The notes under the pieces were generated by a model, which worked only from the letters and a program-made list of their open reading frames with translations, ran no database searches and was not told the origin of the DNA. A DNA stretch of 35,782 nucleotides from Candidatus Moraniibacteriota bacterium (GTDB lineage: Bacteria > Patescibacteriota > Minisyncoccia > Moranbacterales > UBA2206). The position numbers and the translations under genes are program-made. The stretch spans positions 1 to 35,782 of the forward strand of contig JBAXKA010000003.1 of the NCBI GenBank assembly GCA_037137555.1, given 5' to 3'. Position 1 is the stretch's first letter; each line of letters opens with the position of its first letter. This document shows positions 4,532-35,782 of the stretch, piece after piece.

Positions 4532-4616
4532 ATGACGCAATCAAAAGGCTTAATTTAGGAGTTTTCAAGGCATTTTTATTAAAAATGACGCAATTGGCTT
4601 GAAATAATGACGCAAT
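4532..4616 (+). promoter_or_regulatory. Three direct copies of ATGACGCAAT upstream of / overlapping the Fic gene start (candidate operator)
   Basis: Exact 10-mers at 4532-4541, 4585-4594 and 4607-4616, each preceded by A-rich sequence. They lie in the 80-nt T5orf172-Fic intergenic region. Confidence 0.45.
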
Positions 4617-7670: not shown

Positions 7671-7671
7671 T

Positions 7672-8466: not shown

Positions 8467-8472
8467 TAAGAA

Positions 8473-8527
8473 GTTTTGGTTTTTGGCCATTCACACCCTC
8501 AATTCCCCTCTGCCAAAAATCCAAAAC
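8473..8527 (+). other. Stem-loop with conserved C-rich 24-nt loop immediately after the REase stop
   Basis: GTTTTGGTTTTTGGC (8473-87) pairs with GCCAAAAATCCAAAAC (8512-27), giving 15 bp with one bulge. The loop is CATTCACACCCTCAATTCCCCTCT. A homologue with a covarying stem lies at 32229-32281. Confidence 0.7.
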
Positions 8528-8574
8528 AAAAAAACTTATCTAATCTATTTAAAATAAAAAATAAATCAACCAAT

Positions 8575-9690
8575 TCAATCCTTCAAATATTCCAGCGTTT
8601 CTTTCGCACATTTTTCCCAAGAAAACTTTTTGATTTGTTCGGTGCCTTTTTTGATCATAGTTTCTCGTAAGTTTTTATCTTTCAAGACCAGTTCGATTTT
8701 TTCCGCCAAATCAACGGGACTTTTTTCTTGAAAATATAATGGCGCATCGCCACCCACTTCACCAAGGCTAGAATTTAATGCACAAATCAGTGGCACACGA
8801 GAAGCAAGAATTTCCAACACAGGCAAGCCAAAACCTTCATAAAGCGATGGATAAACATACACGCTGGCACCACGAACCAAATGACCCAAATCAGAAAAAG
8901 TTAATCGACCGGGAGTTAGAATATCTTTTTTAAAACGACTTTCTGCAATTTGTTTAAACACATCATCAGAAAGCCATGCCCGCTCCCCTGCAATAACTAA
9001 TTTAATTTTTGATTTAGTTTTTTCTTTGAAAATATCAAAAGCCGAAACCAAAACGCCCAAATTTTTTCTTGGCTGAATCGCACCGGCGTATAAAATATAC
9101 TCACCAGAAATGTTCATTTTATTTTTCACCGCCTGCTCAATCGAAAAATCTCGTTCAATAGAAAAAACTTCTGCGTCAAAACCATGATAAATCACTTTGA
9201 TTTTATGCTCACTTACATTTGGATAAAATTTTAAAATATCTTTTTTGGTTGATTCGGAAATTGCAATAATTTTGTCCGCTTTTGTAAATGCCCATTTTCC
9301 TAAAAGATTTAATTTAAACAAATCTTTTTTGGGAAAATATTCCGGAAAATATTTATAGGCCAAATCATGTGCCGTTACGACTGTTTTTATTTTTGTCGCA
9401 CAAAACACCGGAATATTATGCATCGGCATCCAAAGCACATCCGGTTTATCTTTTCGCAACTCATTGGCTAGCCAAAGTTGAGTCCAAAATACAGGAAAGT
9501 TTTTTTGTTTAATTTTATAGTTGGGAAAATTCGGCGGAGCAAGTTCAGGATTAAATTTATTTTTATGATACAACAAAAAATCACTAGAGTTATCTAGTTT
9601 TCCAAAATATTTCAACATATTCTGAATATAAACACGAGTTCCGTCAATACGACTCGCGTCCAAATCAGCAACTTGAATAGCAATTTTCAT
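8575..9690 (-). CDS. Glycosyltransferase family 4 (GT-B)
   Basis: 371 aa. C-terminal signature YPSLYEGFGLPVLEILASRVPLI, typical of GT4/GT1 retaining transferases. Confidence 0.85.
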   Translation of the reverse strand: MKIAIQVADLDASRIDGTRVYIQNMLKYFGKLDNSSDFLLYHKNKFNPELAPPNFPNYKIKQKNFPVFWTQLWLANELRKDKPDVLWMPMHNIPVFCATKIKTVVTAHDLAYKYFPEYFPKKDLFKLNLLGKWAFTKADKIIAISESTKKDILKFYPNVSEHKIKVIYHGFDAEVFSIERDFSIEQAVKNKMNISGEYILYAGAIQPRKNLGVLVSAFDIFKEKTKSKIKLVIAGERAWLSDDVFKQIAESRFKKDILTPGRLTFSDLGHLVRGASVYVYPSLYEGFGLPVLEILASRVPLICALNSSLGEVGGDAPLYFQEKSPVDLAEKIELVLKDKNLRETMIKKGTEQIKKFSWEKCAKETLEYLKD

Positions 9691-9698
9691 TAAATAGA

Positions 9699-10565
9699 TT
9701 AAAATTTTAAACTTTTTAAATAGGCTTTTAATTTATCACCAATTTCTGCATGTTTTAGTCCAATATGAATAACGGCTTTGAGAAAATTAAATTTATCACC
9801 CGTATCTAGCCATGTTCCTTCAAGTATTCTGCCATAAATTGGTCTATTTTTTTCAAGCATTGCTTCGAAAGCATCGATTAAGCGAATTTCGCCTGAGTTA
9901 CCATGTTCAATCTTAGATAATTCTTCAAAAACTTCTGGCGTGATAATATATTTTCCCACGGCGACCAAGTCTGACTTAGCATCTTCCATTTTTGGTTTTT
10001 CCACCACATTTTTAACTTCAATATTTTTTTCATCCAATTTCACACCATCAAAAACACCAAATTTAGAAACTTCGCTTTTATCGACACGACTCAAGCCAAT
10101 AACTGGATCGCCATAGCGTTCAAATGTTTCCATTAGCTGTTTTGTTGACGGCACTTCGCTGTCATACATACAATCACCAAAAATAACTAGCACTGGTTCA
10201 TCGCCGACAATATGTCTCGCTTGTAAAATAGCATGGCCATCACCAAGTGGCATTGATTGACGCACATAAGAAAATTTAGCCAGATTGGGAATTCTTTGCA
10301 CCTCACGAAGCAAATCATGTTTATTTTTTTCCACCAATGTTTCTTCCAGTTCAAAAGAAATATCAAAATGATCTTCAATCGCCCGCTTGCCTCGTCCTGT
10401 CACAAAAATTATTTCCTCAATACCTGCCGCAACAGCCTCTTCCACTAAATATTGCACGACTGGTTTGTCCACAACTGTGAGCATCTCTTTTGGTTGCGCT
10501 TTTGTCGCTGGTAAAAATCTTGTTCCAAATCCTGCTACTGGCAAAATTGCTTTTTTGATTTTCAT
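9699..10565 (-). CDS. galU: UTP--glucose-1-phosphate uridylyltransferase
   Basis: 288 aa. The N-terminus KAILPVAGFGTRFLPATKAQPKEMLTVVDKPVVQYLVEEA is the classical GalU signature. Confidence 0.92.
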   Translation of the reverse strand: MKIKKAILPVAGFGTRFLPATKAQPKEMLTVVDKPVVQYLVEEAVAAGIEEIIFVTGRGKRAIEDHFDISFELEETLVEKNKHDLLREVQRIPNLAKFSYVRQSMPLGDGHAILQARHIVGDEPVLVIFGDCMYDSEVPSTKQLMETFERYGDPVIGLSRVDKSEVSKFGVFDGVKLDEKNIEVKNVVEKPKMEDAKSDLVAVGKYIITPEVFEELSKIEHGNSGEIRLIDAFEAMLEKNRPIYGRILEGTWLDTGDKFNFLKAVIHIGLKHAEIGDKLKAYLKSLKF

Positions 10566-15834: not shown

Positions 15835-17670
15835 TTACTCTTTTTTAGCCTTATAAATACTCACAAAGTTTTTTGGTCTGCCATCAATATTTATTTTCCA
15901 CATAGGCTTTTCCGACAAATCCTCTTTAAGAATATTCCAAATTTTATTATTTGCTATTGCTCCCCTGCGTGTCATAACATAATAATCAATCGTATTTTCT
16001 TCTGACTTTCCCATATAATTATTATACCCAGAAGCTTGAATGCAAGTTCCATTAAAAAAATAACAGACGCCCCAATAATCTGACCAGACTTTTAAATTAG
16101 TCGAATTTGGCAAAGCATTTAAAATTTGTGCCGCTTCATAACCACCATAACCCCAAGCACCTGTGATAATCCTGTCTTTTGGTAATAAATTACTTGTATA
16201 ATTAAAATAATACGGCTTGATAAACCATAAGCTCAAACTGCTTATGCCAACAATGACTAGCACTGCTATGAATTTATGTTGCACACGATTTATTTTTCCT
16301 AAAATAAACTCATCAATCGAAAAAGCTGCGATCAACATTAATAATGGATAAAGCATCACGCTATAACGAATATTAACTAAAAGATCTTGCTTTAAAACCG
16401 CCGCATAAAAAACAATCAAAAAAACTGAAGCAGAAAAAACAATCAAAGGATATTTTAATTTTACAAATATGCCCTTAATCCATAAGGCGATGACTGAAAA
16501 TAAAACTAATGGGGTGAGAGAAAAAACTAGTGGATAAATTTCCAGAAATAATTTATCCTGAAAGTCTTGTCTGCGAAATGGATAGCTACTCCCCGCATCA
16601 AAATTCATGCCTTTTATGTTTAAAAAATTATCCATACCAAACCAGTTAAATAAAACCAAACAAAACATCGTTGCAATAATAAAAAATATTACTCTCATCA
16701 AGAACGGAAAAATCTTGTTAATTATTTTTGCCAGAAAAAACATAATTCTAGATTGCAAAAAATGAGCATCAAGATAAATCAACAAATTCAATAACATAAT
16801 AGACCAAAATATTGGTGCCATGCCCTTAAAACCAATTGTGCCGTAATAAAAAAAACTAGGGTCAACAATAACAGCTGGCATCAATATCGCGAAAACAAAA
16901 AATGAACCAGCTAAAATAGCTAAATAAGTTAATATATTTTCCTTGGCTCTTTTGGAAAAATCAAGCTGATTTTTTTCTTGCAACAGATGAATCAATATCA
17001 ACATAAAGAAAAACGGAATAAAAATAACGGCCGAATATTTACTTAAAAGTGCAAAGCCAAATAATATCGAGCATAAAATGGCATCTTTTTTTCCTCGATA
17101 TTTCAGATAATTTAAAAGTGAAATGAGTGCAGAGAAAGAAAAAATCCATAAAAGCGAATCGGGATTGATGATTTGAGAAACGCCAATAATAATCGGGTTC
17201 AATAAAATCAAAGTTACGGCGGTTAGTGCTAGCCATCTATTTTCCGTTAAGCGTTTGATTGCCCAAAAAAGAAATAGTGAAAATAATCCGTTGAAAATTA
17301 GAAGTGGCAAACGAAACGCTAGATTAATTCTTTCCGTTTCCGCGGATGTAAAATTACTTTGATAATCCGCTGTTTCAATAGTGCGTTCATGTAAATTATC
17401 TTCAAATAAAATTCCAATACCAGAAACATACGCCAACATCACTCCGGGTTTATCATTTATTCGTGTGCTTAGCCAATCATTTTTTGCAATCGCATTCCAA
17501 TAATCATGAATCCTACCTGCCGTTGGATCATACATCCAATAATGCTCATCGGCTGTTTCGAATTTTGTTATATGATAAACACCAAAAGCAAAATAAAGAC
17601 TGAGCGGTATTAAAAGCAGTAGCAAAAATTTGCTTTTTAGTTGTTTTTTTATGGATTGAATTTTTTGCAT
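15835..17670 (-). CDS. GT-C / PMT_2-family membrane glycosyltransferase (paralogue A)
   Basis: Aligns along its whole length with the upstream paralogue (FETADEHYWMY...RINDKPGVMLAYVSG vs FVSFDEHYWLY...RINDKPGITLAYVSG). I trimmed the track ORF (to 17919) to the ATG at 17670 (MQKIQSIKK...), because the extension overlaps the upstream gene. Confidence 0.8.
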   Translation of the reverse strand: MQKIQSIKKQLKSKFLLLLLIPLSLYFAFGVYHITKFETADEHYWMYDPTAGRIHDYWNAIAKNDWLSTRINDKPGVMLAYVSGIGILFEDNLHERTIETADYQSNFTSAETERINLAFRLPLLIFNGLFSLFLFWAIKRLTENRWLALTAVTLILLNPIIIGVSQIINPDSLLWIFSFSALISLLNYLKYRGKKDAILCSILFGFALLSKYSAVIFIPFFFMLILIHLLQEKNQLDFSKRAKENILTYLAILAGSFFVFAILMPAVIVDPSFFYYGTIGFKGMAPIFWSIMLLNLLIYLDAHFLQSRIMFFLAKIINKIFPFLMRVIFFIIATMFCLVLFNWFGMDNFLNIKGMNFDAGSSYPFRRQDFQDKLFLEIYPLVFSLTPLVLFSVIALWIKGIFVKLKYPLIVFSASVFLIVFYAAVLKQDLLVNIRYSVMLYPLLMLIAAFSIDEFILGKINRVQHKFIAVLVIVGISSLSLWFIKPYYFNYTSNLLPKDRIITGAWGYGGYEAAQILNALPNSTNLKVWSDYWGVCYFFNGTCIQASGYNNYMGKSEENTIDYYVMTRRGAIANNKIWNILKEDLSEKPMWKINIDGRPKNFVSIYKAKKE

Positions 17671-17680
17671 TGTTTCATTA

Positions 17681-19741
17681 TTATTCTGTGCCAATTGCAC
17701 CTTCGACTTTCTTAGCTTTAAAAACTCGCACATAATTCTTATACCGACCATCGATTTCCAGATTAAAAACTGGTTTTCCATCTTCTCTATAAATTGGTCC
17801 CACGAAATTTGGACGCAATTGATTTTGCAGTGTGGCATAAAAATAATCAATTGGATATTGTTCTGTTCTTGTTTTTGCTTTACGAATACATTTGCCAATA
17901 TAAAATTCACAAAAACCATATGAATCCGCCCAGACTATTGTATTTTTCGCATCAGGCAATTTATTCATTTCTTGGGCTATCTCATAACCACCATAACCCC
18001 AACCACTAGTAATGATATATTTTTTTGGCAAAAAATCATTGCTATAACTAAAATAATACGGCCTGATCAGCCAGATGCTTAAGCAAGCCGAACAGACAAC
18101 TAATAAATATATTACTCCGTAAGTCAAATTGCGCAACTTATTCCAGTTTATAAAAATATAAATTAGTTTTGTTGTTATAACAACCACGGAAATAACAATC
18201 AATGCAAAAATAATTCGGTGAAAATTATAAAAAATTCGCAAATTTGCTTCACTAATAATTTTAGCTTGTTCAAAAGAAGATGTCATAAATAAAAGCAGGA
18301 TTATTGAAAATAGCAATGCGAAAAAAATTAAAAATTTTCGCGAATCTTTATGTTCTTTTTCTTTTTGGGCTATAAAAAAATTCTCCAGCGCAATCGCTGA
18401 AAGCAAAGCAGAAATAGGAAAAAGAATAATACTATAACGAATAGTCAAAACCAAGCCTTGCTTAATTACTGCTAGATAAAAAATAAAAATAAAAGCTGAT
18501 AAAATAAATGTCAAATATTCCTGCTTAATTTTTTGAAAGATACTTTTTGACCAAAGATAAATTAAAGAAAATAAAATTATTGGCAAAGAAGCAAAGGCTA
18601 ACGGCACGGTTTCCATAATGAATTGAGAGCTTAATGGCAAATTGCCAAACTCTGGTTTTCGTTTCATATCAAAAGAAATATCTGAAAGATCAATCAAGCG
18701 ATGACGAAGCATCCAATTAATTAAAACGATGACAATACTAGAAAGCAATAATAATGCAACTAATTTTGGCGCATTTTTTTTGACAAATTGCAATTTTTCT
18801 AATAAATAATATAAAATTTTATTTTGATTAAAATAAGCATCCGCCATAAGTAGCAAATTGACCAACATTGAAAACCAAAAGATTGGAGCCATACCGGGAA
18901 AACCAATCGTGCCGGCATAAAAAAATTGTGGCTCAACAAAAACAGCTGGCATCATTAAAGCAAAAATCAAAAAACCGCCAAAAACAATTCCCAGATAAGC
19001 TAAGCTGTTTTTTAAAACGAGCGCTTTTAATTTTTCTGCTTTATTTGTCCAACCAGAAAATTCAAATAAATAAAAAGCTAACAGCATAAAAAGAAAAAAC
19101 GGAACGAGAATAACACTCACATATTTGCTCGCCATAGACAAACCAAAGAAAAATAGCGTTAGCCAAAAATATTTTTTTTCAGTTTGCAAGAGCCAAGCCG
19201 CAAAAGTCAACATCGCCGCGAAAGCAAAAATCCAAAACAACGAATCCGGATTAACAATTTGCGAGATCCCAATAATCACAGGAGAAAGATATATTAAAGC
19301 AACTGCCAAAAGTGCCAGCCATTCATTCTTTGTGATCTTTTTAATGATCCAGAAAAAATAAAAAATAAAAAAACCAGTCGTCAACAAGATTGGCAAACGA
19401 AAGAGAAAATTAATTTTCTCTGTTTTTTGCGGATCAAAAATTTTCACGGTTTTATCTGTAAAAATCACATGTTCATCTACGATATTATTATCAAAAAGCA
19501 ACGCCAGTCCGGAAACATAGGCGAGTGTAATTCCTGGTTTATCATTGATTCTTGTTTTTTCCCAATCCCCTTCGGCAATTGCTTTCCAATATTGATGGAT
19601 TCGATCATTATCCGAATTATACAACCAATAATGTTCATCAAATGAAACAAACTTAGTCAGATGCGTAAATCCAAAAAAGAAATACACAGCCAAGACAACT
19701 AACAATAAAAATTTAATTTGATATTTTTTTTTAATCAGCAT
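17681..19741 (-). CDS. GT-C / PMT_2-family membrane glycosyltransferase (paralogue B)
   Basis: 686 aa. DEHYW loop motif, many TM helices, and a conserved C-terminal domain (GWGYGGYE...). It is in tandem with paralogue A, 10 nt apart. Confidence 0.8.
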   Translation of the reverse strand: MLIKKKYQIKFLLLVVLAVYFFFGFTHLTKFVSFDEHYWLYNSDNDRIHQYWKAIAEGDWEKTRINDKPGITLAYVSGLALLFDNNIVDEHVIFTDKTVKIFDPQKTEKINFLFRLPILLTTGFFIFYFFWIIKKITKNEWLALLAVALIYLSPVIIGISQIVNPDSLFWIFAFAAMLTFAAWLLQTEKKYFWLTLFFFGLSMASKYVSVILVPFFLFMLLAFYLFEFSGWTNKAEKLKALVLKNSLAYLGIVFGGFLIFALMMPAVFVEPQFFYAGTIGFPGMAPIFWFSMLVNLLLMADAYFNQNKILYYLLEKLQFVKKNAPKLVALLLLSSIVIVLINWMLRHRLIDLSDISFDMKRKPEFGNLPLSSQFIMETVPLAFASLPIILFSLIYLWSKSIFQKIKQEYLTFILSAFIFIFYLAVIKQGLVLTIRYSIILFPISALLSAIALENFFIAQKEKEHKDSRKFLIFFALLFSIILLLFMTSSFEQAKIISEANLRIFYNFHRIIFALIVISVVVITTKLIYIFINWNKLRNLTYGVIYLLVVCSACLSIWLIRPYYFSYSNDFLPKKYIITSGWGYGGYEIAQEMNKLPDAKNTIVWADSYGFCEFYIGKCIRKAKTRTEQYPIDYFYATLQNQLRPNFVGPIYREDGKPVFNLEIDGRYKNYVRVFKAKKVEGAIGTE

Positions 19742-28310: not shown

Positions 28311-30095
28311 TTATTTTTTTAAAACCGCCAAAAAAGCTTCCGACGGAATCGCCACCTTGCCAATGTTTTTCATTTTCTTCTTGCCTTTTTTTTGTTTTTC
28401 CAAAAGTTTTCTTTTTCTGGTAATATCACCACCATAGAGGCCACTAATCACATCTTTGCGAAAAGCTTTAACGGTTTCTCGTGCTAAAACTTTCCCACCA
28501 ATAGCCGCTTGAATAGCAATTTGAAAATTTTGTCGCGGAATAGCCTCTTTTAATTTTTCCACAATCCGCTTACCTTCACTATGCGCCCAAATTTTTGGCA
28601 CAATTCGTGAAAAGGCTTCCACTTTTTCCTCGGCAATAATAATATCTAATTTCACAAGCTCATTGGCACGATAATCAGACAATTCATAATTCATTGACGC
28701 ATAACCAGAAGAAGCACTTTTCAGATCATCATGCAAATTCGTGATCACATCCGTCAGCGGACAATTAAATTTCAAAATCATTCGTTCACTATTTAAATAT
28801 TCCGTATCGAGATATTCCGCCCGCGTATTTTTCATCATTTCCATAATCGCTCCTAAATAATTAGACGGAGAAATAATTTCCAGATGCACATACGGCTCAA
28901 AAATCGCTTCAATCACTGAAGGATCTGGCAATTCCGAAGGAGAATAAACTTTCAATCTTTTTTCTTGACTTTTTCCGGTTAATTGAATTTCATAAACAAC
29001 ACCTGGCGTGGTAATAGTTGGACTCAACTCAAATTCTTTTTCCAATCGCGCTTGAATAATTTCTAAATGCAAGAGACCCAAAAATCCACAACGAAAACCA
29101 CGACCAAGTGCCAAGTTGCTTTCCGGCTCAAATACAAAAGCCGCATCGTTTAATTTCAATTTTGAAAGTGCATCCCGCATTAAATTATAATCATCCCCAG
29201 AAGTGGGATAAAAAGAAGCATACACCATCGGACTGACTTCACGATAACCTGGCAATTTTTCAATTTGTTTTTCAAATTTAGAAATCGTGACTGTATCACC
29301 AACCTTGCAATATTCCACACTTTTGAAACCAGTAGCGATATAACCAATTTCTCCCACTTTCAATTTCGCAGTTTTTTGAAAATCCGGCTTGAAATATCCC
29401 ACCTCAATCACATCACTTTTCGCTCCCGTCGCCAACATTAAAATTTCTTCTTCCGCTGAAATTCCCCCATCAATTATTCGCACATACGCCAAAACGCCTT
29501 TATAAATATCATATTTAGAATCAAACACCAAAGCACGCAATGGCTTATTTTCATCACCACTTGGAGCAGGCACAACTTCCATAATTTTTTGTAATAATTT
29601 CTCCACGCCCGCACCAGTTTTGCCTGACACTTCCAAAATATCTTCTTTTTTGCAACCAATAATATGCATAATTTCCGCTTTAGTTTTTTCCACATCAGCA
29701 TTCGGCAAATCAATTTTATTCGCCACAGGAATAATTTCTAAATTATGTTCAATCGCTTGATATAGATTAGCCAATGTCTGAGCTTGCACACCTTTCGTCG
29801 CATCAACTAAAATCACTGCACCTTCCACAGCGGCCAGCGATCTCGAAACTTCATAACCAAAATCCACATGCCCTGGCGTGTCAATTAAATTTAAAATATG
29901 TCCAGCATATTCCATGCGCACCGGTTGCATTTTAATCGTAATCCCCCGCTCTCGCTCAAGATCCATCTGATCAAGCAACTGCTCTTTCATTTTGCGCGCC
30001 TCAACCGTTTTAGTAATTTCCAACATACGATCAGCCAGCGTGGATTTGCCATGATCAATGTGTGCGATAATACAAAAATTTCGAATATTTTTCAT
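28311..30095 (-). CDS. lepA: Translation elongation factor 4 (LepA)
   Basis: 594 aa. NFCIIAHIDHGKSTLADRMLE G1 motif, DTPGHVDF, NKID, and the LepA-specific C-terminal domain. Confidence 0.95.
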   Translation of the reverse strand: MKNIRNFCIIAHIDHGKSTLADRMLEITKTVEARKMKEQLLDQMDLERERGITIKMQPVRMEYAGHILNLIDTPGHVDFGYEVSRSLAAVEGAVILVDATKGVQAQTLANLYQAIEHNLEIIPVANKIDLPNADVEKTKAEIMHIIGCKKEDILEVSGKTGAGVEKLLQKIMEVVPAPSGDENKPLRALVFDSKYDIYKGVLAYVRIIDGGISAEEEILMLATGAKSDVIEVGYFKPDFQKTAKLKVGEIGYIATGFKSVEYCKVGDTVTISKFEKQIEKLPGYREVSPMVYASFYPTSGDDYNLMRDALSKLKLNDAAFVFEPESNLALGRGFRCGFLGLLHLEIIQARLEKEFELSPTITTPGVVYEIQLTGKSQEKRLKVYSPSELPDPSVIEAIFEPYVHLEIISPSNYLGAIMEMMKNTRAEYLDTEYLNSERMILKFNCPLTDVITNLHDDLKSASSGYASMNYELSDYRANELVKLDIIIAEEKVEAFSRIVPKIWAHSEGKRIVEKLKEAIPRQNFQIAIQAAIGGKVLARETVKAFRKDVISGLYGGDITRKRKLLEKQKKGKKKMKNIGKVAIPSEAFLAVLKK

Positions 30096-30101
30096 AAATT
30101 G

Positions 30102-30917
30102 TTATTCTAGTGGACTTTTAATTTTCCTTAACATCGGATTAGTCACTTTCGTATAAATCTGGGTTGTTCTAATGTTAGCATGCCCTAGCAATTCTTGCAC
30201 GAAACGAACATCTACGCCATTTTCTAACAAATGCGTTGCAAAACTATGACGCAAAGAATGAAATGTCGCCTCTTTTTTAATTCCCGCTTTTTTGAGTGCA
30301 GTTTCAAAAACTTTTTGTGCAGTTCTTTCGGTTAATTTTCCACCGCGTTCACTAGCGAAAATATAATCATTGAGTTTTTTGTTTGCAATTAATTTTTCAA
30401 CATCACCAATTAGTTTTTCCGGCAAAAGTGTTATCCGATCTTTATTTCTTTTAGCGTCTTTAATGTGAATCGTCAATTCCGCCAAACAAACATCTTTAAC
30501 TTTCAAATTAATAATCTCACTCACCCGCAAACCACCAGAATAAGCCAAAGCAATCATCAAATTATGTTTTTTATTATTAATTACTAGCAATATTTTTTCA
30601 ATTTCAGCGCGAGAAAGCACAATCGGTAACTTGCTTGGAGTCTTGGCAAAGCGCACATCAATTTTTCCCCGAAATTTCAAAACATTCCAGCAGAAGAAGT
30701 TAATCGCTTGCAAATTCTGATTAGACATCTGCGATGATTTCCCCTCATCTATTTTTGACAAAATATACTGCTTAATAAAATCCACATCAACAATTTCAAA
30801 ATTATTCTGTTTAGCTTTTAAATAATTAGTAACACAATAAGTATATGCACTGATAGTTTTTGGACTATATTTTCTCAATCGCAATTCATCATTTAGTTTT
30901 TTTAAGTAAAAATCCAT
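30102..30917 (-). CDS. Tyrosine site-specific recombinase, integron-integrase-like but lacking the IntI-specific insertion
   Basis: 271 aa. R (GGLRVSE), HSLRHSFATH (HxxR) and LLGHANIRTTQIYTKV (H, Y). SAM-like N-terminal domain (YSPKTISAYTYCVTNYL) and a ...KSPLE C-terminus. It is divergent from the cassette array. Confidence 0.85.
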   Translation of the reverse strand: MDFYLKKLNDELRLRKYSPKTISAYTYCVTNYLKAKQNNFEIVDVDFIKQYILSKIDEGKSSQMSNQNLQAINFFCWNVLKFRGKIDVRFAKTPSKLPIVLSRAEIEKILLVINNKKHNLMIALAYSGGLRVSEIINLKVKDVCLAELTIHIKDAKRNKDRITLLPEKLIGDVEKLIANKKLNDYIFASERGGKLTERTAQKVFETALKKAGIKKEATFHSLRHSFATHLLENGVDVRFVQELLGHANIRTTQIYTKVTNPMLRKIKSPLE

Positions 30918-30925
30918 TTATTTAT

Positions 30926-30954
30926 TTGACACATTATTACAATTTGAGTATAAT
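30926..30954 (+). promoter_or_regulatory. Pc-like cassette promoter, perfect sigma70 consensus
   Basis: TTGACA (30926-31), a 17-nt spacer, then TATAAT (30949-54). It points into attI and the cassette array. Confidence 0.65.
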
Positions 30955-30957
30955 TAA

Positions 30958-30986
30958 ATCATACAGAATATTCACAAAAATAGCAA
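30958..30986 (-). promoter_or_regulatory. Candidate recombinase promoter (Pint-like), face-to-face with Pc
   Basis: On the minus strand: TTGCTA (30986-81), a 17-nt spacer, then TATGAT (30963-58), about 40 nt upstream of the recombinase ATG (30917). Confidence 0.45.
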
Positions 30987-30998
30987 TATTATGCATGC

Positions 30999-31037
30999 TA
31001 TCTGAAAACACTTCGGATATAAACGAGTTATCTGAAA
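30999..31037 (+). other. attI-like site: two direct TATCTGAAA boxes; inferred crossover G|TT at 31027/31028
   Basis: TATCTGAAA occurs at 30999-31007 and at 31029-31037. The second box is part of GTTATCTG (31027-34), the exact reverse complement of cassette 1's inverse core CAGATAAC (32349-56). Confidence 0.65.
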
Positions 31038-31139
31038 TTTGCTTTTTCTTTTCGCCTATCGGCGACGCATTTCTGTAATGAATTAATTGAATTTATTTAT
31101 TTTAAAAGGGGGTATAAGGAAGAAAACTTTATTAATATT

Positions 31140-32222
31140 TTGAATACAAATATGGAAAAATTCTCACCAGAATTAGTACAAGCGCAAACTGAGGCTCTTG
31201 ATATTCAAAAAAAAGCAAAAGAGGAGAAAGAAAAGAAAGGAGAAGTCGGAAGTTTAAGCAACGAAGATTATGAGAATGCTTGCCTGCCCCGCGTTGAAAG
31301 TTATGAGAAATTTTTGGAGGAAAATACAAAACTAGAATCCTTCGTTGATCACATTGAGCAAAACTCCCCAAATGGCGAAATAAATATATACAGTCCTGAA
31401 TTTTGGTATTCCTATCAGAAATTTATTGAAACTGTTTGGACAAAAGAAGGATTGGCACAATTAAACAGTAAGGACTACGAGGATTTTGAAGATTATAGAC
31501 ATGATTCCAATAAAATGCGAAAACCGATTGATCATGTTTTTTCTAACGGTGCATCTATTTTCAGGGGTAACGAACATTTCAATAGAATAAAACAGCGTTC
31601 TCTTTTGAATACTTTAAATAAAAATGGCATATCTACTGAAAACCTGCAAACCATAAAAGATTCATTTGCACATTATTATCGTAGCGATGGCGGCTATGGA
31701 CCAAAAAATATTAGCAAAAGTGCCTTGGAGCAATCGTACTTACAACGAATTGAGGCAGTCAAAAAATTGAACCAAAGTCAAGAACTATCGAAAATAACCG
31801 AAATCTGGGATGAATACGGATTACTTGATTCTCTATCTAGCGAGGTCAGCACATGTTTTGGCGGGCGCAACGAAACGCCAATTATAAGAAAGATAAGAGA
31901 GAAGCACAAAAATTCTTTTAAGGAAAAAAAGTTTAAAGAAATTGAGTTAGCTATAGTTGAAACAATTACCTTAAACGGACTAAAGGATAGCTTTTTATTA
32001 ACAAAAGAGTATGACAAATTAATTGAAATAGAGAAAAAAGACCCAAATTTAATAAAATCAGCTATTGCTGGAACATCCGCCCTCACCTTTGTTGTACTTA
32101 CTTCCAATATAGTCTCAACAGTAGTTGGAGACGCTTACGCATACACCCCAATAGGTGCAGTTCCAAATATTGATAGTATTTCTCGCGAGATGAAAGAGTT
32201 TTGTTGCGACGTAGAAGAGTAA
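31140..32222 (+). CDS. Cassette 1 ORF: hypothetical protein with C-terminal TM helix
   Basis: 360-aa ORF (TTG in the track; first ATG at 31152, MEKFSPEL...). The N-terminus is charged and the C-terminus has a hydrophobic segment, SAIAGTSALTFVVLTSNIVSTVVG. No motif recognised. Confidence 0.6.
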   Translation: MNTNMEKFSPELVQAQTEALDIQKKAKEEKEKKGEVGSLSNEDYENACLPRVESYEKFLEENTKLESFVDHIEQNSPNGEINIYSPEFWYSYQKFIETVWTKEGLAQLNSKDYEDFEDYRHDSNKMRKPIDHVFSNGASIFRGNEHFNRIKQRSLLNTLNKNGISTENLQTIKDSFAHYYRSDGGYGPKNISKSALEQSYLQRIEAVKKLNQSQELSKITEIWDEYGLLDSLSSEVSTCFGGRNETPIIRKIREKHKNSFKEKKFKEIELAIVETITLNGLKDSFLLTKEYDKLIEIEKKDPNLIKSAIAGTSALTFVVLTSNIVSTVVGDAYAYTPIGAVPNIDSISREMKEFCCDVEE

Positions 32223-32228
32223 TAAGGA

Positions 32229-32281
32229 GTCTTTGTTTCTGGGCATTCACCCCTTAATCCCCTCTGCCCAAAAACAAAGAC
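32229..32281 (+). other. Stem-loop with conserved C-rich loop after the cassette 1 ORF (homologue of 8473-8527)
   Basis: GTCTTTGTTTCTGGGC (32229-44) pairs with GCCCAAAAACAAAGAC (32266-81) at 15/16 bp. The loop is ATTCACCCCTTAATCCCCTCT. The stem sequence differs from the 8.5-kb copy while pairing is kept. Confidence 0.7.
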
Positions 32282-32348
32282 AAAATTCAATTAATTCATT
32301 ACAGAAATACTATTCCTCTGCTGAGGAATGAAAAGAAAAAGCAAACAT

Positions 32349-32437
32349 CAGATAACACGGCATATCTGGTTACGGCTTTTTACAAAAGCCTCCACCCAAA
32401 TTGCTACGCAACTTCAGATATGCCGAAACGTTAGCTG
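32349..32437 (+). other. attC-like site 1 (89 bp)
   Basis: R'' CAGATAAC; P1 GGCATATCTG (32359-68) pairs with CAGATATGCC (32415-24); P2 GGCTTTT/AAAAGCC; conserved CCACCCAAATT (32392-402); R' GTTAGCTG (32430-37). Confidence 0.75.
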
Positions 32438-33815
32438 AAATAAATTTTTATCTTTGTAGTAATTTCAAGTTCTGTGCGTTGATCAAAGACGAAAATTTGA
32501 TTTTTTAAATTAAAAGTTTTTTCCGCTTCGCGGATTATTTGGGGGCAATTTTATTTTTTATTTTAAATACAATATGATGAACAAACAAATCAACACCGCT
32601 TTGGCGATTGCGGTAATAATCATAATCGCTGGAATTGCGGGCGGAACAATTTATACAAACATTGCGAATAACAATCCGGCCACAATTATTCCTGTAATCA
32701 ATAAAACTCAACAAAACAAAGTTATTAGCAAATCTTCAGATGATATTGCTATAGGCAAGTCATGTGATGCTCGTAATTTAAAATCCTACAACGGTGGCGG
32801 AGAAATTGCAGCCACAAAAGGTTTACAATGTTATATGTACGACGACCTTTCTGACAGAATGCTTAACAATGGCAAGTGGATTTATCCGAGCGGCAAGGAA
32901 ACGGTTCGCAAGGGCGTTTGGGTTTATCCGAATCATATGAGCATACCGATATTCTTAGCCCAAGAAAAACCTTCCTTGTTTGATACGGTTTCAATAAATG
33001 ACCTTACACAAAACTGGAAGTTATACGATAATTCCAACGGTAATTATAGTTTTAAGTTTCCGAAACAATGGGAAGTAAAAAAAGACGCTTCAAATGCAAA
33101 CCAATTGACAATAGAAAAAATAAATACGACCGAAGCAAATACTATATTCGCAACAATCACATATTATCCGAATGCTAAATTCGAAACTACAGATGATTAT
33201 CAAAATATTAACGAAGCTCCAGATGATTGGCTTGTGCCTGACAATTCTACTGACACATTCATCCTTACTCGCCATTTTGATTTAAATGGCGCTACTGCAC
33301 TCTTAGTCGAAAGAATGAATAATTTTGACTTGGGTGGAAGTTCTTATGGCGAAACAATTTTTGTCACTAAGCCAAATTCATATTTTACGATTGAATATAC
33401 AAAATATCAGGACGCCGATATTGATTTGCCAGTAGAGATGTTAATTAAAACCTTACGGTTTAAATAACATCTTATAAAAAAATAAGGAAGAAAAATAAAA
33501 AATAAAATTGCCCCCAAATAATCGTTTTGCCATTCGGCAAAACAAAAACTTTTAATTTAAAAAATCAAATTTTCTTTACGATAAGCAAAGTTTATACTGT
33601 TAAAGACGAAGATAAAAATTTACATCAGCTAACACGGAGTAAACGGTTCAGAAATTTTTCAATATTAATAATTAGAGGAGTAAAAAATTTCTTCACCCAA
33701 ATTCGTTTTCCTTAGTCAGTGCCATTATCAAGATTAGTGCATTTAATATAATTCCGTTAAGATAACAAAGTTTAATCAATTAAGTCGGAAAACGAACTTC
33801 GTTTACTCCGATACG
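32431..33815 (+). mobile_element. Gene cassette 2
   Basis: Opens TTAGCTG and ends at G of GTTATGTG. The IR arms are 32430-32564 and 33492-33633, including perfect 31-bp (32491-521/33544-74) and 32-bp (32533-64/33492-523) blocks. Confidence 0.75.
32574..33467 (+). CDS. Cassette 2 ORF: secreted/membrane-anchored hypothetical protein
   Basis: 297 aa. N-terminal signal-anchor (ALAIAVIIIIAGIAGGTIY) and then a soluble domain. No motif recognised. Confidence 0.65.
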   Translation: MMNKQINTALAIAVIIIIAGIAGGTIYTNIANNNPATIIPVINKTQQNKVISKSSDDIAIGKSCDARNLKSYNGGGEIAATKGLQCYMYDDLSDRMLNNGKWIYPSGKETVRKGVWVYPNHMSIPIFLAQEKPSLFDTVSINDLTQNWKLYDNSNGNYSFKFPKQWEVKKDASNANQLTIEKINTTEANTIFATITYYPNAKFETTDDYQNINEAPDDWLVPDNSTDTFILTRHFDLNGATALLVERMNNFDLGGSSYGETIFVTKPNSYFTIEYTKYQDADIDLPVEMLIKTLRFK

Positions 33816-33822
33816 TTATGTG
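33626..33822 (+). other. attC-like site 2 (197 bp)
   Basis: R'' CAGCTAAC; P1 GGAGTAAACG (33636-45) pairs with CGTTTACTCC (33800-09); P2 33650-59/33683-92; conserved TCACCCAAATT (33693-703); P3 CGTTTTCC (33704-11) pairs with GGAAAACG (33787-94); R' GTTATGTG (33815-22). Confidence 0.75.
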
Positions 33823-34957
33823 AAATACCCAGAAATTTCTTTATTCATTTTTAAGATTTTTTTGGCGAATGCACGGGTCGAATAACTCAGATATAAATAA
33901 TTAAAATTAATTTTAAAAAACAAAGTATGAAAAACAAAAGAGGAAACGTTGCCGTAATTGCGCTTATCATCGTTATTGTGGCAATTACAACAGGCGTAAT
34001 CACTTGGCTTATCGCGACAAAAACACAAGCGCCAGTTCAGCAGGCAGTTGTAACTCAACCTGCGCCAGTTGCAAAAACACAGCCAGTAGTTCAATCTACC
34101 ACGCCAACTGCACAGTCAACACCAGCTAGCGATGTGAGTAAACAGGGCATTAAAGAATATAAATCAGGGAATACATTCAGTTTTAATTATCCTTCTCAAG
34201 TTTGTGATCCTGAAAGTAAAAAATGTTATCCGATTGTGTTGTCTGAAGATAAATCAGTAATCACACTAAATGCTTCAGAAGGTGGTTTATTTAAGATTTA
34301 TTATGGTACAAATATTACTGATGATAAATCAGCTAATAATTTCTTACAAACCACATTGAAGAACGGACTATGCAAGATTGATACAACTGAAACTAATATG
34401 CTACAAGGAACAACGATTAAAAATGTTTTCTTAGATGGAGGTTGTTCTCTTTATGGTCCTGCATATGAAAAATATTCTTCTGCTCATCCGGATGCAATTG
34501 GCTTAGCTGGAAAAAATAGGGCTTATTGGGCAACTGATAGCAAGGAAATGATTGTCTATGTTCTTGGTCAGGGAGGTGGTTGTTCATTTCTTGATTGTGA
34601 ATTGGAAGGAAAAATATCAGAAAGTATTAACCTTGGTGGAATCAATGTATTTGATAAATCTATGAGTGGAATTTAAAAACAGTGTCGCAAAAGAAATAAT
34701 TTTTTGAATTCATAAATGCAATTCGCCAAAAAATACATTAAGGAGGAAGAAATTTCTGGGTACATCACATAACAGCCCATATCTGGCTACAGGAAATTGA
34801 CGCTATTGAAAACAATATTGAGTGTCAATTTCCCTCCGCCCAAATTTTCATCCCTTAGTTTTGATGAAGGTTTAGGTGGAGTTCATCAAAAAATATATCA
34901 GCCTATAATCAAAGTCTATCCTATAAAACGGGATGAAAACTTCAGATATGGGCAACG
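33816..34957 (+). mobile_element. Gene cassette 3
   Basis: Opens TTATGTG and ends at G of GTTAGGCG. The IR arms are 33815-33872 and 34718-34773, with a perfect 16-bp block at 33826-41/34747-62. Confidence 0.75.
33927..34676 (+). CDS. Cassette 3 ORF: membrane-anchored extracytoplasmic protein with P/T/Q/V-rich linker
   Basis: 249 aa. N-terminal TM (VAVIALIIVIVAITTGVITWLIA), the linker QAPVQQAVVTQPAPVAKTQPVVQSTTPTAQSTPA, and a Cys-containing globular domain. Confidence 0.65.
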   Translation: MKNKRGNVAVIALIIVIVAITTGVITWLIATKTQAPVQQAVVTQPAPVAKTQPVVQSTTPTAQSTPASDVSKQGIKEYKSGNTFSFNYPSQVCDPESKKCYPIVLSEDKSVITLNASEGGLFKIYYGTNITDDKSANNFLQTTLKNGLCKIDTTETNMLQGTTIKNVFLDGGCSLYGPAYEKYSSAHPDAIGLAGKNRAYWATDSKEMIVYVLGQGGGCSFLDCELEGKISESINLGGINVFDKSMSGI

Positions 34958-34964
34958 TTAGGCG
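34766..34964 (+). other. attC-like site 3 (199 bp)
   Basis: R'' CACATAAC; P1 CCCATATCTG (34776-85) pairs with CAGATATGGG (34943-52); P2 AGGAAATTGAC (34791-801) pairs with GTCAATTTCC (34824-33); conserved CCGCCCAAATT (34836-46); P3 TTTCATCCC (34846-54) pairs with GGGATGAAA (34930-38); R' GTTAGGCG (34957-64). Confidence 0.75.
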
Positions 34965-35072
34965 AAAAAACTAAAAATTTCCTCTCTATTTTTGAAAAGA
35001 ATTTTTGGCAATTTTGCTCGGTCGATAACTCGGTATATAATTAAGATAAGTTTAACAAATTAAAAAAAAATT

Positions 35073-35627
35073 ATGAAAAAAGTATTAGCAATAAGTTCGG
35101 TGTTGCTTGGAGTCGTCTTTTTGGCTGGGTGTGGTCAACAGCCGGTGAGTCAAACGCAGCCAACAACGCCAGCTCCCATAGTGAAACAGCCAGCAACTAC
35201 TCCTCCGGTCGCAACTCAACCAGCGCCAACAACTCCAGCCGTCACTCAAAATTACATTGAAGTAAAAGAATTGGGATTCAAGATTCCCGTTGATGCCTCA
35301 AGCGCAAATGAGATAACTTACAAAATTACACAAGTCACAAAAGACAGTCCAACTCCTGGCGTGTACTTTTCAACCAAGGAGCTAAACTCAATGAGTAAGG
35401 ATTGCGAAGAAGGATCGATTGGGGCAATTTCAAAAGTGTCTGGCAAAGTATCCACAGATCCTAATTCAGAAAATTTCATGCCAGGAGAAATAAAACAACT
35501 CCAAGGTTTTTCACTGGTATTTCAGACTCCTCAAGCCCCTTGTCACTCCGGCGACAACTCTCTGGATAGAAAATTTATGCAAATCCTTGAAACTGGATTT
35601 AAAAATGCGGTTCTACTTGGTCAGTAA
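35073..35627 (+). CDS. Cassette 4 ORF: lipoprotein with P/T/Q-rich linker
   Basis: 184 aa. Signal peptide with lipobox (VFLAGC|GQQ), the linker QPTTPAPIVKQPATTPPVATQPAPTTPAV, and then a globular domain. Confidence 0.7.
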   Translation: MKKVLAISSVLLGVVFLAGCGQQPVSQTQPTTPAPIVKQPATTPPVATQPAPTTPAVTQNYIEVKELGFKIPVDASSANEITYKITQVTKDSPTPGVYFSTKELNSMSKDCEEGSIGAISKVSGKVSTDPNSENFMPGEIKQLQGFSLVFQTPQAPCHSGDNSLDRKFMQILETGFKNAVLLGQ

Positions 35628-35674
35628 ATTGCCAAAAATTCTTTATCATTAAGAATGGAAATTTTTAGTTTCAT

Positions 35675-35782
35675 CGCCTAACAACGCATATCTGGCTACA
35701 GGAAAATCACTCAAATATATTCAAAGGATGTGATTTTCCCTCCGCCCAAATTTTCATCCCTTAGTTTTGATGAAGGTTTAGG
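35675..35782 (+). other. attC-like site 4 (partial)
   Basis: R'' CGCCTAAC (35675-82), the reverse complement of the cassette 4 opening GTTAGGCG; P1 5' strand GCATATCTG; P2 AGGAAAATCAC/GTGATTTTCC (covaries with site 3). The rest is near-identical to site 3 up to the window edge. Confidence 0.7.

Follow-up and report, generated by a model that had tools for sequence, protein, structure and literature searches.

The window, a stretch of 35,782 nucleotides from Candidatus Moraniibacteriota bacterium, contains a tyrosine recombinase gene and, divergent from it, a promoter-like box, an attI-like site and a series of unidirectional cassettes (Table 1). By sequence the recombinase is closest to XerA (5HXY, 2.5e-39), which is also its first match in Foldseek, where the best matches were XerA and IntI (2A3V) with 270 and 313 aligned columns, respectively. 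It scored 210.7 bits against the NCBIfam model XerA_Arch, just below the cutoff of 220, and 201.8 bits against TIGR02249 (integron integrase), below that model's cutoff and in two separate stretches. Alignment to VchIntIA (2A3V) was likewise split: query 5-180 corresponds to 6-184 and query 195-270 to 242-317, which leaves 14 residues where VchIntIA has 57, and in IntI1 as many as 312 codons, 45 more, lie opposite query residues 5-271. The IntI-specific extra domain around patch III is hence absent by alignment, TIGR02249 and Foldseek. CPR bacteria hold hundreds of homologues with 73-93% identity, and an archaeal relative (locus L057) scores 236.6 bits, above the NCBIfam XerA cutoff.

Table 1. 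Coordinates of the recombinase gene, the attI-like region, the cassettes and their sites in the window.
Feature	Position	Strand	Description
Tyrosine recombinase, XerA/IntI-like	30102..30917	-	271 aa; without IntI-specific extra domain
Pc-like promoter	30926..30954	+	TTGACA-17 nt-TATAAT; 12/12 consensus match; points into cassette array
attI-like site	30998..31038	+	small inverted repeat, then core
attI-like inverted repeat	30998-31020		repeat triplets covary between loci
attI-like core	31010-31038		ACTTCGGATAT-AAACGAG-TTATCTGAAAT
Cassette 1	31028..32430	+	ORF 31140-32222, 360 aa, plus site 1
Site 1, attC-like three-way junction	32345..32441	+	87 nt R''-to-R'; covariance model 79.8 bits
Site 1 R''	32345-32356		ACATCAGATAAC
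Site 1 P1; P1'	32359-32368; 32415-32424		
Site 1 P2; P3	32374-32390; 32398-32414		
Site 1 R'	32430-32441		GTTAGCTGAAAT
Cassette 2	32431..33815	+	ORF 32574-33467, 297 aa, N-terminal membrane anchor, plus site 2
Site 2, attC-like	33622..33826	+	~197 nt; covariance model 40.1 bits; long P2 and P3 loops
Cassette 3	33816..34957	+	ORF 33927-34676, 249 aa, N-terminal membrane anchor, plus site 3
Site 3, attC-like	34762..34968	+	~199 nt; covariance model 45.8 bits
Cassette 4	34958..35782	+	ORF 35073-35627, 184 aa, plus incomplete site 4
Site 4, attC-like	35671-35782	+	incomplete; reaches window end before P1'

The promoter-like box has counterparts elsewhere: a TAnAAT box, TGCTATAAT in most loci, occupies the same place in 24 related loci. 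Across 24 loci the attI core lies 83-88 nt (mostly 84) upstream of the recombinase start and varies only in the triplet after TTA. It is made up of two inverted 11-bp arms that end in TA(A/T) and enclose a 7-bp centre, with the putative crossover point, between G and TT, falling between 31027 and 31028. Nucleotide homology among ~27 loci stops at attI, at 31029-31052 of the window.

A preliminary description of this DNA had noted four sites with a common architecture, and their positions are confirmed here. Folding of both strands of sites 1-3 with DNA parameters gave a three-way junction in each, with z-scores for the two strands of -5.6/-6.0 (site 1), -2.6/-3.5 (site 2) and -5.9/-6.1 (site 3). 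Related sites, ~250 of them, were found in ~150 other loci; site 2 has homologues in L009 and L015, site 3 in L037 (8875-9082), and positions 8327-8483 of L022 are 97% identical to site 4. From R'' to R' the sites measure 66-199 nt (median 88), and 26 of the 250 exceed 141 nt, in line with the earlier remark that some lie above the usual attC size. The left spacer has 2 nt (conserved A-n) and the right one 4-5 nt (conserved ..AC), and this inequality creates the asymmetric loop beside the R boxes that had been described, except that the right spacer is not 5 nt throughout, being 4 nt (CAAC) in site 3. P1 is a continuous 10-bp helix without an extrahelical base in sites 1-3 of the window; a subset of the sites elsewhere has one additional G in P1' (CAGAT-G-ATGCC). 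Conservation among sites extends to the junction sequences GGYT, CCC, AAATT and AACTTC. Two arms can be recognised, both of which conserve T, A, three variable bases and GAAAT, with the partner strands ACTTC and ACATC, in which the A.C position is identical. The TA dinucleotides are separated by 8 nt in the left strand and by 10-11 nt in the right one.

A covariance model built on 22 sites identified 54 sites in the genome loci plus the window and 143 further sites in metagenome loci (E <= 1e-5). P1, P3 and the R helix were paired in 93.4% of cells in the 54 sites and in 92.7% in 142 distinct metagenome sites, as against ~75% in shuffled and 28-43% in slid controls. In these two alignments 194 and 571 cells, respectively, were changed on both sides, and none of 500 shuffles reached the observed values. 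RNAalifold, applied to 33 short sites, independently recovered P1, P2 and a closing GGY/RCC helix with compensatory changes in 16 of 17 pairs, and the uninterrupted P2 stem averaged 7.7 bp, compared to 3.8 bp in shuffles. The covariation first proposed for P1 and P3 is thus strong on two separate alignments, and that of P2 is supported by RNAalifold. Together with the folds, these data bear out the three-way junctions with covarying stems and indicate, at the level of the alignments, that pairing in the sites is under selection.

The sequence CCRCCCAAATT, previously taken to be a conserved unpaired strand, was rejected in that role because most of it is paired. Its R pairs with the Y of GYT, as seen in their covariation (GT with CACCC in 56 cases, GC with CGCCC in 45, GC with CACCC in 4, GT with CGCCC in none) and in the pairing of GGY with RCC by RNAalifold; its AAATT pairs with AACTT, with covarying versions such as ATATT/AACAT, ACATT/AACGT and AAATC/GACTT, and the central A.C mismatch of this helix is kept in 133 of 143 sites. 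The unpaired part comes down to about CC. AAATT is probably a recognition determinant all the same, but in duplex form, where it would make up the outer half of a second arm for recombinase binding rather than act as a single strand: the second arm reads TA-nnn-G^AAAT, compared to TTA-nnn-GAAAT in R'. The bottom strand folds better, with a mean difference of -2.3 kcal/mol (Wilcoxon p = 1e-35), and the less stable strand, which bears the conserved A.C mismatches, is that of mRNA sense. Variable stem positions showed no G.T/A.C bias (77 vs 70); the strand asymmetry is owed to a small number of conserved positions. Classical attC sites have the same strand bias, via G:T pairs (PMC5027507).

Each cassette in the window has a single ORF, and no replication or phage genes were found in these cassettes. 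The ORF of cassette 1 had no family match, and that of cassette 4 has a lipoprotein-type signal peptide and an LptM-like match. Three of the cassettes have ends that pair: in cassette 1, 31024-31053 with 32330-32359 and 31069-31094 with 32283-32308; in cassette 2, ~135-nt inverted repeats (32430-32564 and 33492-33633) on either side of the ORF, with 111 identities in 135 nt and a score of 49.5 against a null maximum of 13 in anchored alignment; and in cassette 3, 33815-33841 with 34747-34773. Cassettes have been reshuffled between genomes. The 5' end of cassette 2 follows different sites in L003, L037 and L042, and homologues of the 5' end of cassette 4, fourth in the window, adjoin the recombinase in L030 and come after one site in L022. 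An ORF-less cassette of ~190 nt is present in three copies in one array. Loci have 1-5 folded sites, all on one strand within a locus, and the longest ORF between sites follows the direction of the array in 87 of 97 cassettes (median 186 aa). The cassette boundaries lie between G and TT of R', so that the bases after G belong to the next cassette, and the triplet after the G and TTA of one site is complementary to R'' of the following site. This complementarity is full in 40 of 81 adjacent pairs, compared to 21 of 192 for R'' with its own R' and 9% for random pairs.

The hosts of these loci are CPR bacteria and one DPANN archaeon. All 63 model matches (E <= 1) in 81 sources were on the strand opposite the recombinase gene and, except for two weak ones, upstream of it, and among the 27 CPR loci whose upstream DNA extends for 1 kb or more, 26 have a site. 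Among the 100 metagenome loci scanned with the model, 10 site-anchored ones hold a recombinase match; in nine the gene is divergent from, and upstream of, the sites, and the tenth (L197) has a co-oriented C-terminal recombinase fragment. On the side where the recombinase is expected, 22 site-anchored metagenome loci extend for 2.5 kb or more; 16 of them lack an intact recombinase, and at least two of these 16 retain a degraded gene. In Wolfebacteria CP011209 (L020), the only complete genome examined, GC skew does not change sign across the locus, and the GC content of the module, 38.5%, is below the ~47% of the flanking DNA, an indication of acquisition rather than of a terminus site. The repeats thus behave as suggested initially, as attC-like cassette sites adjoining a short tyrosine recombinase, and we put the probability at roughly 0.7 that the four repeats and the recombinase are parts of an integron-like platform with which a CPR (Patescibacteria) bacterium captures genes into a cassette array.

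How such sites may work can be proposed from the patterns of conservation. Each would mimic a dif-type site by the folding of a single strand, and would offer the recombinase two arms of the form TA-nnn-GAAAT to bind. The R arm would consist of R''/R' plus the flanks ACATC/GAAAT, and the L arm of P1 stacked coaxially on the AAATT/AACTT base of P3, and so be assembled across the junction, with P2 branching off between G and AAAT; this L-arm model is our reading of what is conserved. One strand would have 8 nt between its TA dinucleotides, as expected from a 6-bp central region, and the other 2-3 extra nt. Strand choice may depend on what makes the two strands differ: the extra nucleotides, the branch order and two conserved non-Watson-Crick positions, with A.C on the top strand and G.T on the bottom strand. 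Such features would stand in for the extrahelical bases and the extra domain of IntI on which classical integrons rely. Crossover would occur between G and TTA, that is, between TAA and C on the bottom strand, as in integrons. We infer recombination activity and use of a single strand, in which the adjacent recombinase would be the catalyst and the folded bottom strand its substrate, with one strand exchanged and the junction resolved by replication.

Some of these observations could also be accommodated by classical double-strand recombination. In every site the right half, composed of L', a spacer of 8-9 nt and R', is by itself a complete two-arm duplex site with the same two arms as attI, and such duplex cores (ACTTCnnnTAT, 8-9 bp, TTAnnnGAAAT), directly repeated along the array, might be the true substrates, with R'', P1, P2 and P3 accessory or unrelated, for example transcript ends or protein-binding palindromes. 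This would agree with attI, in which two arms and a 7-bp spacer form a plain duplex site, and with a recombinase devoid of the domain by which IntI reads folded DNA. A duplex reaction would not, however, select intramolecular pairing, yet P1, P2, P3 and AAATT/AACTT all covary; R'' also tracks the cassette-specific triplet in R' of the preceding site, the left half is a full arm only in the folded strand, and spacers of 8-9 bp, unlike the 7 bp of attI, would make unusual partners for it. We consider double-strand recombination quite unlikely as the explanation. The elements might, on the other hand, function at the RNA level, for example as terminators or as stabilisers of 3' UTRs, or be generic repeats such as REP/MITE-like palindromes, with the recombinase next to them by coincidence, as each lies just downstream of an ORF in the same direction and some lack a nearby recombinase. 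This is very improbable: the mRNA-sense strand is the one less stable and mismatched, no T run follows the sites, a terminator scan detects none of them, Rfam gave no match, and DNA-level signatures are seen in the logic of the boundaries, in the end of homology at attI and in the reshuffling of cassettes.

The roles could also be assigned differently, the recombinase being a housekeeping Xer and 'attI' its dif, with cassettes that exploit Xer through a folded single-stranded hairpin in the manner of CTX phage and no dedicated integron. Elements that exploit Xer (IMEX, CTX type) are self-contained phages, plasmids or islands that integrate at the dif site of the host. That the site adjoins the gene, as it does in Xer systems with a single recombinase (XerS or XerH, for example), favours this assignment, as do the proximity of the protein to XerA and of its archaeal relative to the XerA family, the high conservation of the recombinase gene and the failure to find a second tyrosine recombinase in the window. 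CPR recombinases have, moreover, been grouped as Xer substitutes (PMC8138268). The constant sign of GC skew and the low GC content of the Wolfebacteria module, and the decay of recombinase genes beside some arrays, argue against it, and we regard a housekeeping Xer as unlikely. Since the mechanism at the sites would be alike under this assignment and in the integron-like platform, the two differ mainly in which role came first.

The integron-like platform that we favour shares with integrons a recombinase gene divergent from the array, an adjoining promoter and attI, one-directional single-gene cassettes, sites that are imperfect palindromes with ...AAC and GTT... boxes, stems that vary in sequence with pairing kept, a bottom strand that folds better, and the existence of arrays without an integrase, as in CALINs. 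It differs from them in its recombinase, which is devoid of the extra domain specific to IntI, through which extrahelical bases are contacted; in the L stem of the window's complete sites, which has no extrahelical base, the asymmetry being in the spacers; in the distal part, a conserved three-way junction with fixed junction sequences where integron sites are little conserved in sequence beyond the R boxes and have a free, variable terminal structure; in size, with attC sites of 57-141 nt and sites here of up to 199 nt; and in its CPR and DPANN hosts. Like attP(+) of CTX phage, it would pair a Xer-type enzyme without extra domain with a site that exists only in a folded strand and has unpaired bases in the central region, and one strand exchange followed by replication would be expected; CTX, in contrast, involves a whole phage genome, the host XerC and XerD and chromosomal dif, whereas here single genes are stacked beside a single, dedicated-looking recombinase and the site is a three-way junction. 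The closest relatives of the recombinase in sequence and fold belong to archaeal XerA/dif, XerH/difH and XerS/difSL. These single-recombinase systems resolve dimers at the terminus, where each chromosome has its one duplex site, whereas the folded sites found here form cargo-bearing arrays and the GC-skew switch is absent from the locus in the one complete genome. The pdif modules of Acinetobacter plasmids are similar in that cargo genes bounded by Xer-type sites occur in varying contexts, but those are XerC/XerD sites of the ordinary duplex kind whose orientation alternates, and they come without folded structure, adjacent recombinase gene, attI or one-directional array. A literature search found no description of such an integron-like system. 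Altogether, we see an even chance that CPR bacteria and at least one DPANN archaeon practise integron-like cassette capture by an unmodified XerA-type recombinase acting on a three-way-junction single-stranded site, with the second arm assembled across the junction and polarity coming from the bulged bases of the spacers, the order of the branches and fixed G.T wobbles, whether the system survives from a stage that preceded integrons or arose independently as recombination on folded DNA; if true, polarity would here be achieved without extrahelical bases or an IntI domain.

The recombinase gene, a promoter-like box, the attI-like site and four ORFs with their sites occupy the last 5 kb of the window, in that order (see table). 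Elsewhere the window carries ordinary chromosomal genes (LepA, ClpB, two HtrA, glycosyltransferases, a restriction-modification pair, Fic and KilA-N) and no second recombinase. The restriction-modification pair, an N6_N4 DNA methylase and a TdeIII-type endonuclease (6078-8466), adjoins a Fic-domain protein (4607-5671) and a T5orf172-domain protein (3924-4526), and the group resembles a small island of defence genes or mobile DNA. Gene direction flips from plus to minus at ~15.8 kb, and the minus strand carries a tandem pair of large PMT_2-type glycosyltransferase ORFs (15835-17919 and 17681-19741) with an overlap of ~240 nt.

Coordinates of the recombinase-cassette module in the window
Feature	Position (nt)	Strand	Remarks
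Recombinase gene	30102-30917	minus	271-aa tyrosine recombinase
Promoter-like box	30926-30954		TTGACA-17-TATAAT, perfect consensus, facing right toward the array
attI-like site	31010-31038		ACTTCGGATAT-AAACGAG-TTATCTGAAAT
Cassette ORF 1	31140-32222	plus	
attC-like site 1	32345-32441		behind ORF 1
Cassette ORF 2	32574-33467	plus	
attC-like site 2	33622-33826		behind ORF 2
Cassette ORF 3	33927-34676	plus	
attC-like site 3	34762-34968		behind ORF 3
Cassette ORF 4	35073-35627	plus	
attC-like site 4	35671-end		behind ORF 4
Cassette-end inverted repeat	31024-31094 with 32283-32359		
Cassette-end inverted repeat	32430-32564 with 33492-33633		
Cassette-end inverted repeat	33815-33841 with 34747-34773		
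Cassette-end inverted repeat	34957-35014 with 35626-35682		

The site architecture proposed in the preliminary description is present, and sites 1-3 fold with DNA parameters into a three-way junction on both strands (z-scores -2.6 to -6.1). To extend the sample past the four window sites, we retrieved 80 loci encoding recombinase relatives, and a DNA-pattern scan of metagenomes yielded at least 120 more loci. A loose regular-expression site finder gave 159 matches, mostly false, and was replaced by a covariance model built from 22 loop-trimmed sites. In MAFFT alignments of whole sites, length differences in the junction strands put P2 and the right spacer out of register; the model therefore includes the P1, P3 and R pairs only, and P2 was tested separately. 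Sites matching the model numbered 63 (E <= 1) in the window plus the recombinase-anchored loci, 35 in viral-collection contigs and 171 in 100 metagenome loci preselected by DNA pattern. In an alignment of 54 sites (A3), 93.4% of cells were paired, compared to 74.9% in shuffled and 28-40% in slid controls, with 194 cells changed on both sides and a covariation score of 0.385 (shuffled, 0.107). The covariation persisted in more homologues: for 142 sites, none used in building the model (A4), the values were 92.7% paired (shuffled, 74.6%; slid, 29-43%), 571 cells changed on both sides and a score of 0.412 (shuffled, 0.111). In neither alignment did any of 500 shuffles equal the real sites in pairing or in covariation score. 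Fitting to the covariance model biases both alignments toward the structure, but covariation in P1, P3 and R is robust despite this, given the slid controls and the variety of pair types within each column. In the separate test, the uninterrupted P2 stem averaged 7.7 bp versus 3.8 bp in shuffles. From a plain MAFFT alignment of 33 short sites, RNAalifold predicted P1, P2 and the closing helix, with compensatory changes in 16 of 17 pairs; P3 was missed owing to the alignment fault already described.

The CCRCCCAAATT strand, previously taken to be single-stranded, turned out to be mostly paired, R with the Y of GYT and AAATT with AACTT. The Y and R combinations were GT/CACCC (56 sites), GC/CGCCC (45), GC/CACCC (4) and GT/CGCCC (0), GGY was paired with RCC in the RNAalifold prediction, and the AAATT/AACTT helix is preserved in the variants ATATT/AACAT, ACATT/AACGT and AAATC/GACTT, its central A.C mismatch being retained in 133 of 143 sites. 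Only about two C are left unpaired, and hence the junction is tight. Metagenomes also contain apparent hybrid sites (L184, 1459-1559; L220, 261-359; L166, 2147-2246, minus strand), which combine a left half (R''-P1-P2) from one site type with a right half (P3-P1'-R') from another, P1 being unpaired near the junction; they may reflect past exchange either at the L arm or within the conserved CCCAAATT.

Several independent DNA-level signatures of the sites match integron cassettes. In 40 of 81 adjacent pairs, the variable triplet after G|TTA of one site can pair at all three bases with the R'' triplet of the next, compared to 21 of 192 for a site's own R' and 9% for random pairs. Nucleotide homology across ~27 loci spans the recombinase gene and ends at 31029-31052, the attI-like site, which in 24 loci lies 83-88 nt (mostly 84) upstream of the recombinase start codon and varies only in the triplet after TTA. 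Homologues of the 5' end of window cassette 4 adjoin the recombinase in one locus (L030) and follow one site in another (L022), and the 5' end of cassette 2 is found behind four different site cores; the site core therefore moves with the ORF upstream of it, as it does in integrons. Within each locus all sites lie on one strand, and the longest ORF runs in the array direction in 87 of 97 cassettes.

The non-coding 5' and 3' ends of the window cassettes form long inverted repeats (up to ~135 nt, with perfect 31-32-nt blocks) that prolong the R'(n)/R''(n+1) pairing between neighbouring sites and would place the cassette ORF in the loop of a long hairpin. Such repeats also occur in L037, L003 and L011; clear in the window and several loci and missing from many other cassettes, they were rejected as a universal feature. 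That cassettes encode surface or secreted proteins likewise fits window cassettes 2-4 but was dropped as a general rule, the overall count being 20 of 87 versus 79 of 200 baseline ORFs. In L020, a complete Wolfebacteria genome (CP011209), a ~190-nt GC-rich cassette lacking an ORF is present in three copies in one array (7300-10010), and one site has a P2 loop of ~430 nt holding a 118-aa ORF on the opposite strand (7988-8344).

The attI-like site, in which 7 bp separate an L'-type from an R'-type arm, is the duplex counterpart of the sites; the left arm alone forms a small hairpin, with triplets that covary among loci. The ~120 nt from the recombinase start codon to attI are conserved (30918-31020 and the matching region of 24 loci). 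This stretch includes a -10-like box oriented toward the cassettes and an inverted repeat, ATA-nnn-GAAAACACTTC-nnn-TAT, with covariation of its triplets among loci; a further imperfect palindrome, AATATTCGC...GCAATATT, may be an operator.

Sites and recombinase gene are associated in position and orientation. In the recombinase-anchored loci every model match is on the strand opposite the gene and, except for two weak ones, upstream of it. At least one site is present in 26 of the 27 CPR loci having at least 1 kb of upstream DNA, and arrays comprise one to five sites; many other recombinase loci stop within ~200 nt of the gene, because repeats tend to break assemblies. Among the site-anchored metagenome loci scanned with the model, ten have a recombinase match, the gene being divergent from and upstream of the sites in nine; in the tenth (L197, 1741-2217) a C-terminal recombinase fragment is co-oriented with them. 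The main caveat to the association is the arrays without an intact recombinase gene: of the 22 site-anchored loci in which the side expected to carry the gene extends for at least 2.5 kb, 16 have none. In at least two of the 16, a decayed copy oriented like the cassettes lies next to an attI-like site. Such arrays resemble the integrase-less attC clusters of integrons. A second arrangement is seen in L156 (~2.8-3.1 kb), L160 (~2.25-2.54 kb) and L197 (1741-2217), where the recombinase gene, decayed in the first two, is co-directional with the cassettes and ends just ahead of an attI-like site ...CGGATATAAACAAG|TTA...

The recombinase is about equidistant from XerA and IntI, and is without the IntI-defining feature. 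It scored 210.7 bits against NCBIfam XerA_Arch (cutoff 220), 201.8 bits in two stretches against the integron integrase, and 175 and 169 bits against XerD and XerC, respectively; a Foldseek search with its AlphaFold model (pLDDT 77.6) matched XerA (5HXY, 6.9e-14) and IntI (2A3V, 2.4e-13). It aligns with VchIntIA (2A3V) in two blocks (residues 5-180 with 6-184, and 195-270 with 242-317), 14 of its residues standing in for 57 of VchIntIA that include the IntI-specific domain, and IntI1 is 45 codons longer across the aligned span. Homologues 73-93% identical are found in hundreds of CPR assemblies, where such proteins have been grouped as 'Cand' and presumed to be Xer substitutes (PMC8138268). 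In the window (28311-30917) as in L002, L003, L005 and L006, lepA lies immediately downstream of the recombinase gene (75-81% nucleotide identity, 2.7 kb); more distant loci have the recombinase-attI module alone in common, which is consistent with module transfer between lineages.

How such an enzyme might use the sites is suggested by their conserved columns. The R' arm reads TTA-nnn-GAAAT opposite ACATC-nnn-TAA, and the end of P1 with the start of P3 reads (A)TA-Tnn-G^AAATT opposite AACTTC-nnA-TAT (^, P2 branch point), a C facing the third A of GAAAT in both arms. Xer arms of 11 bp around a 6-bp centre, as in E. coli dif, give a TA spacing of 8 nt. The TA-to-TA distance is 8 nt on the left strand of the sites and 10-11 nt on the right, where 2-3 bases must therefore bulge, and the bases adjacent to the R boxes are conserved (A on the left, AC on the right). 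Given two arms with the same conserved positions, we propose that two recombinase monomers would bind the folded strand, one at the R arm and one at a coaxial L arm formed by P1 and the base of P3, and that the bottom strand of site 1 would be cleaved after TAA of 5'-ATTTCAGCTAA|C. The fixed top-strand A.C positions are G.T wobbles on the bottom strand; this bias is seen at fixed positions only, a general G.T bias in stems being rejected (77 versus 70 at variable positions). Classical attC sites have a strand bias of the same kind, and there extrahelical bases, central spacer and terminal structure jointly set strand choice (PMC5027507). In the present system, which has no IntI domain, strand choice would fall to three features: the bulge in the spacer, the fixed wobbles, and the order in which P2 and P3 follow from the cleavage site.

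Judging from conservation, this two-arm folded strand is probably the substrate. A duplex reaction at L'-spacer-R' cores is possible in principle, but leaves unexplained both the selection for pairing and the tracking of R'' with R'. Were the recombinase a housekeeping Xer acting on dif, with hitch-hiking cassettes, the chemistry at the sites would be unchanged; we consider this unlikely, as L020, the one complete genome, has no GC-skew switch at the locus and its module has 38.5% GC within ~47% GC surroundings, so that a dif at the terminus is unsupported by the single complete genome examined. A role of the sites as RNA or as generic repeats fits poorly, Rfam having no match anywhere in the window.

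Named hosts of close loci are Moranbacteria, Wolfebacteria, Liptonbacteria, Parcubacteria and other Patescibacteria; a few automated-binning labels (Bdellovibrionales, Cyanobacteriota) are probably mis-assignments. In a Candidatus Pacearchaeota MAG (L057, 4961-10756), four sites lie upstream of a recombinase passing the XerA cutoff, with Bud32, archaeal RecJ, aIF2-alpha, S3ae and an intein-containing SRP54 as neighbours. The covariance model found no sites in other XerA-like DPANN loci (L046-L056, L058, L064-L068). A pattern scan of viral contigs gave 58 matches, ~16 of them real sites and the rest at chance level for 19 specified bases; the recombinase was not found in the retrieved stretches around the real sites, and hence we make no claim of phage carriage. 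Dense arrays occur in IMG/VR contigs, with six sites in 2.1 kb in L093 (1622-3747), which also encodes a 776-aa protein with a LAGLIDADG/homing-endonuclease domain, and at least eight in the 39-kb contig IMGVR_UViG_3300038954_000279 (L092/L101/L116); these contigs may be CPR fragments misfiled as viral.

A full-text search of the published literature, incomplete in coverage, found no integrons or attC-like arrays in CPR and no Xer-type enzymes with cassette arrays, and the IntegronFinder 2 survey does not mention CPR. Integron-finding tools need the IntI domain, and platforms like these would therefore not be called complete integrons. Archaeal integron integrases have been reported with the IntI domain (PMC9668308). 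The sites and recombinase described here would extend cassette-based gene capture to ultra-small host-dependent CPR bacteria and a DPANN archaeon, in which routes of gene exchange are poorly known, and supply a concrete set of alternative polarity determinants open to mutation. In engineering, they could provide a structure-specific recombination system orthogonal to the existing one. The prevailing view derives integron integrases from Xer recombinases by gain of a domain reading extrahelical bases of folded DNA, and the pairing of a domain-less recombinase with folded cassette-bounding sites bears on how an Xer-like enzyme could begin using such sites. Altogether, the system would work like an integron, but departs from it in three respects: the IntI domain, the extrahelical bases, and a terminal structure that is free and keeps the site within the usual size range.
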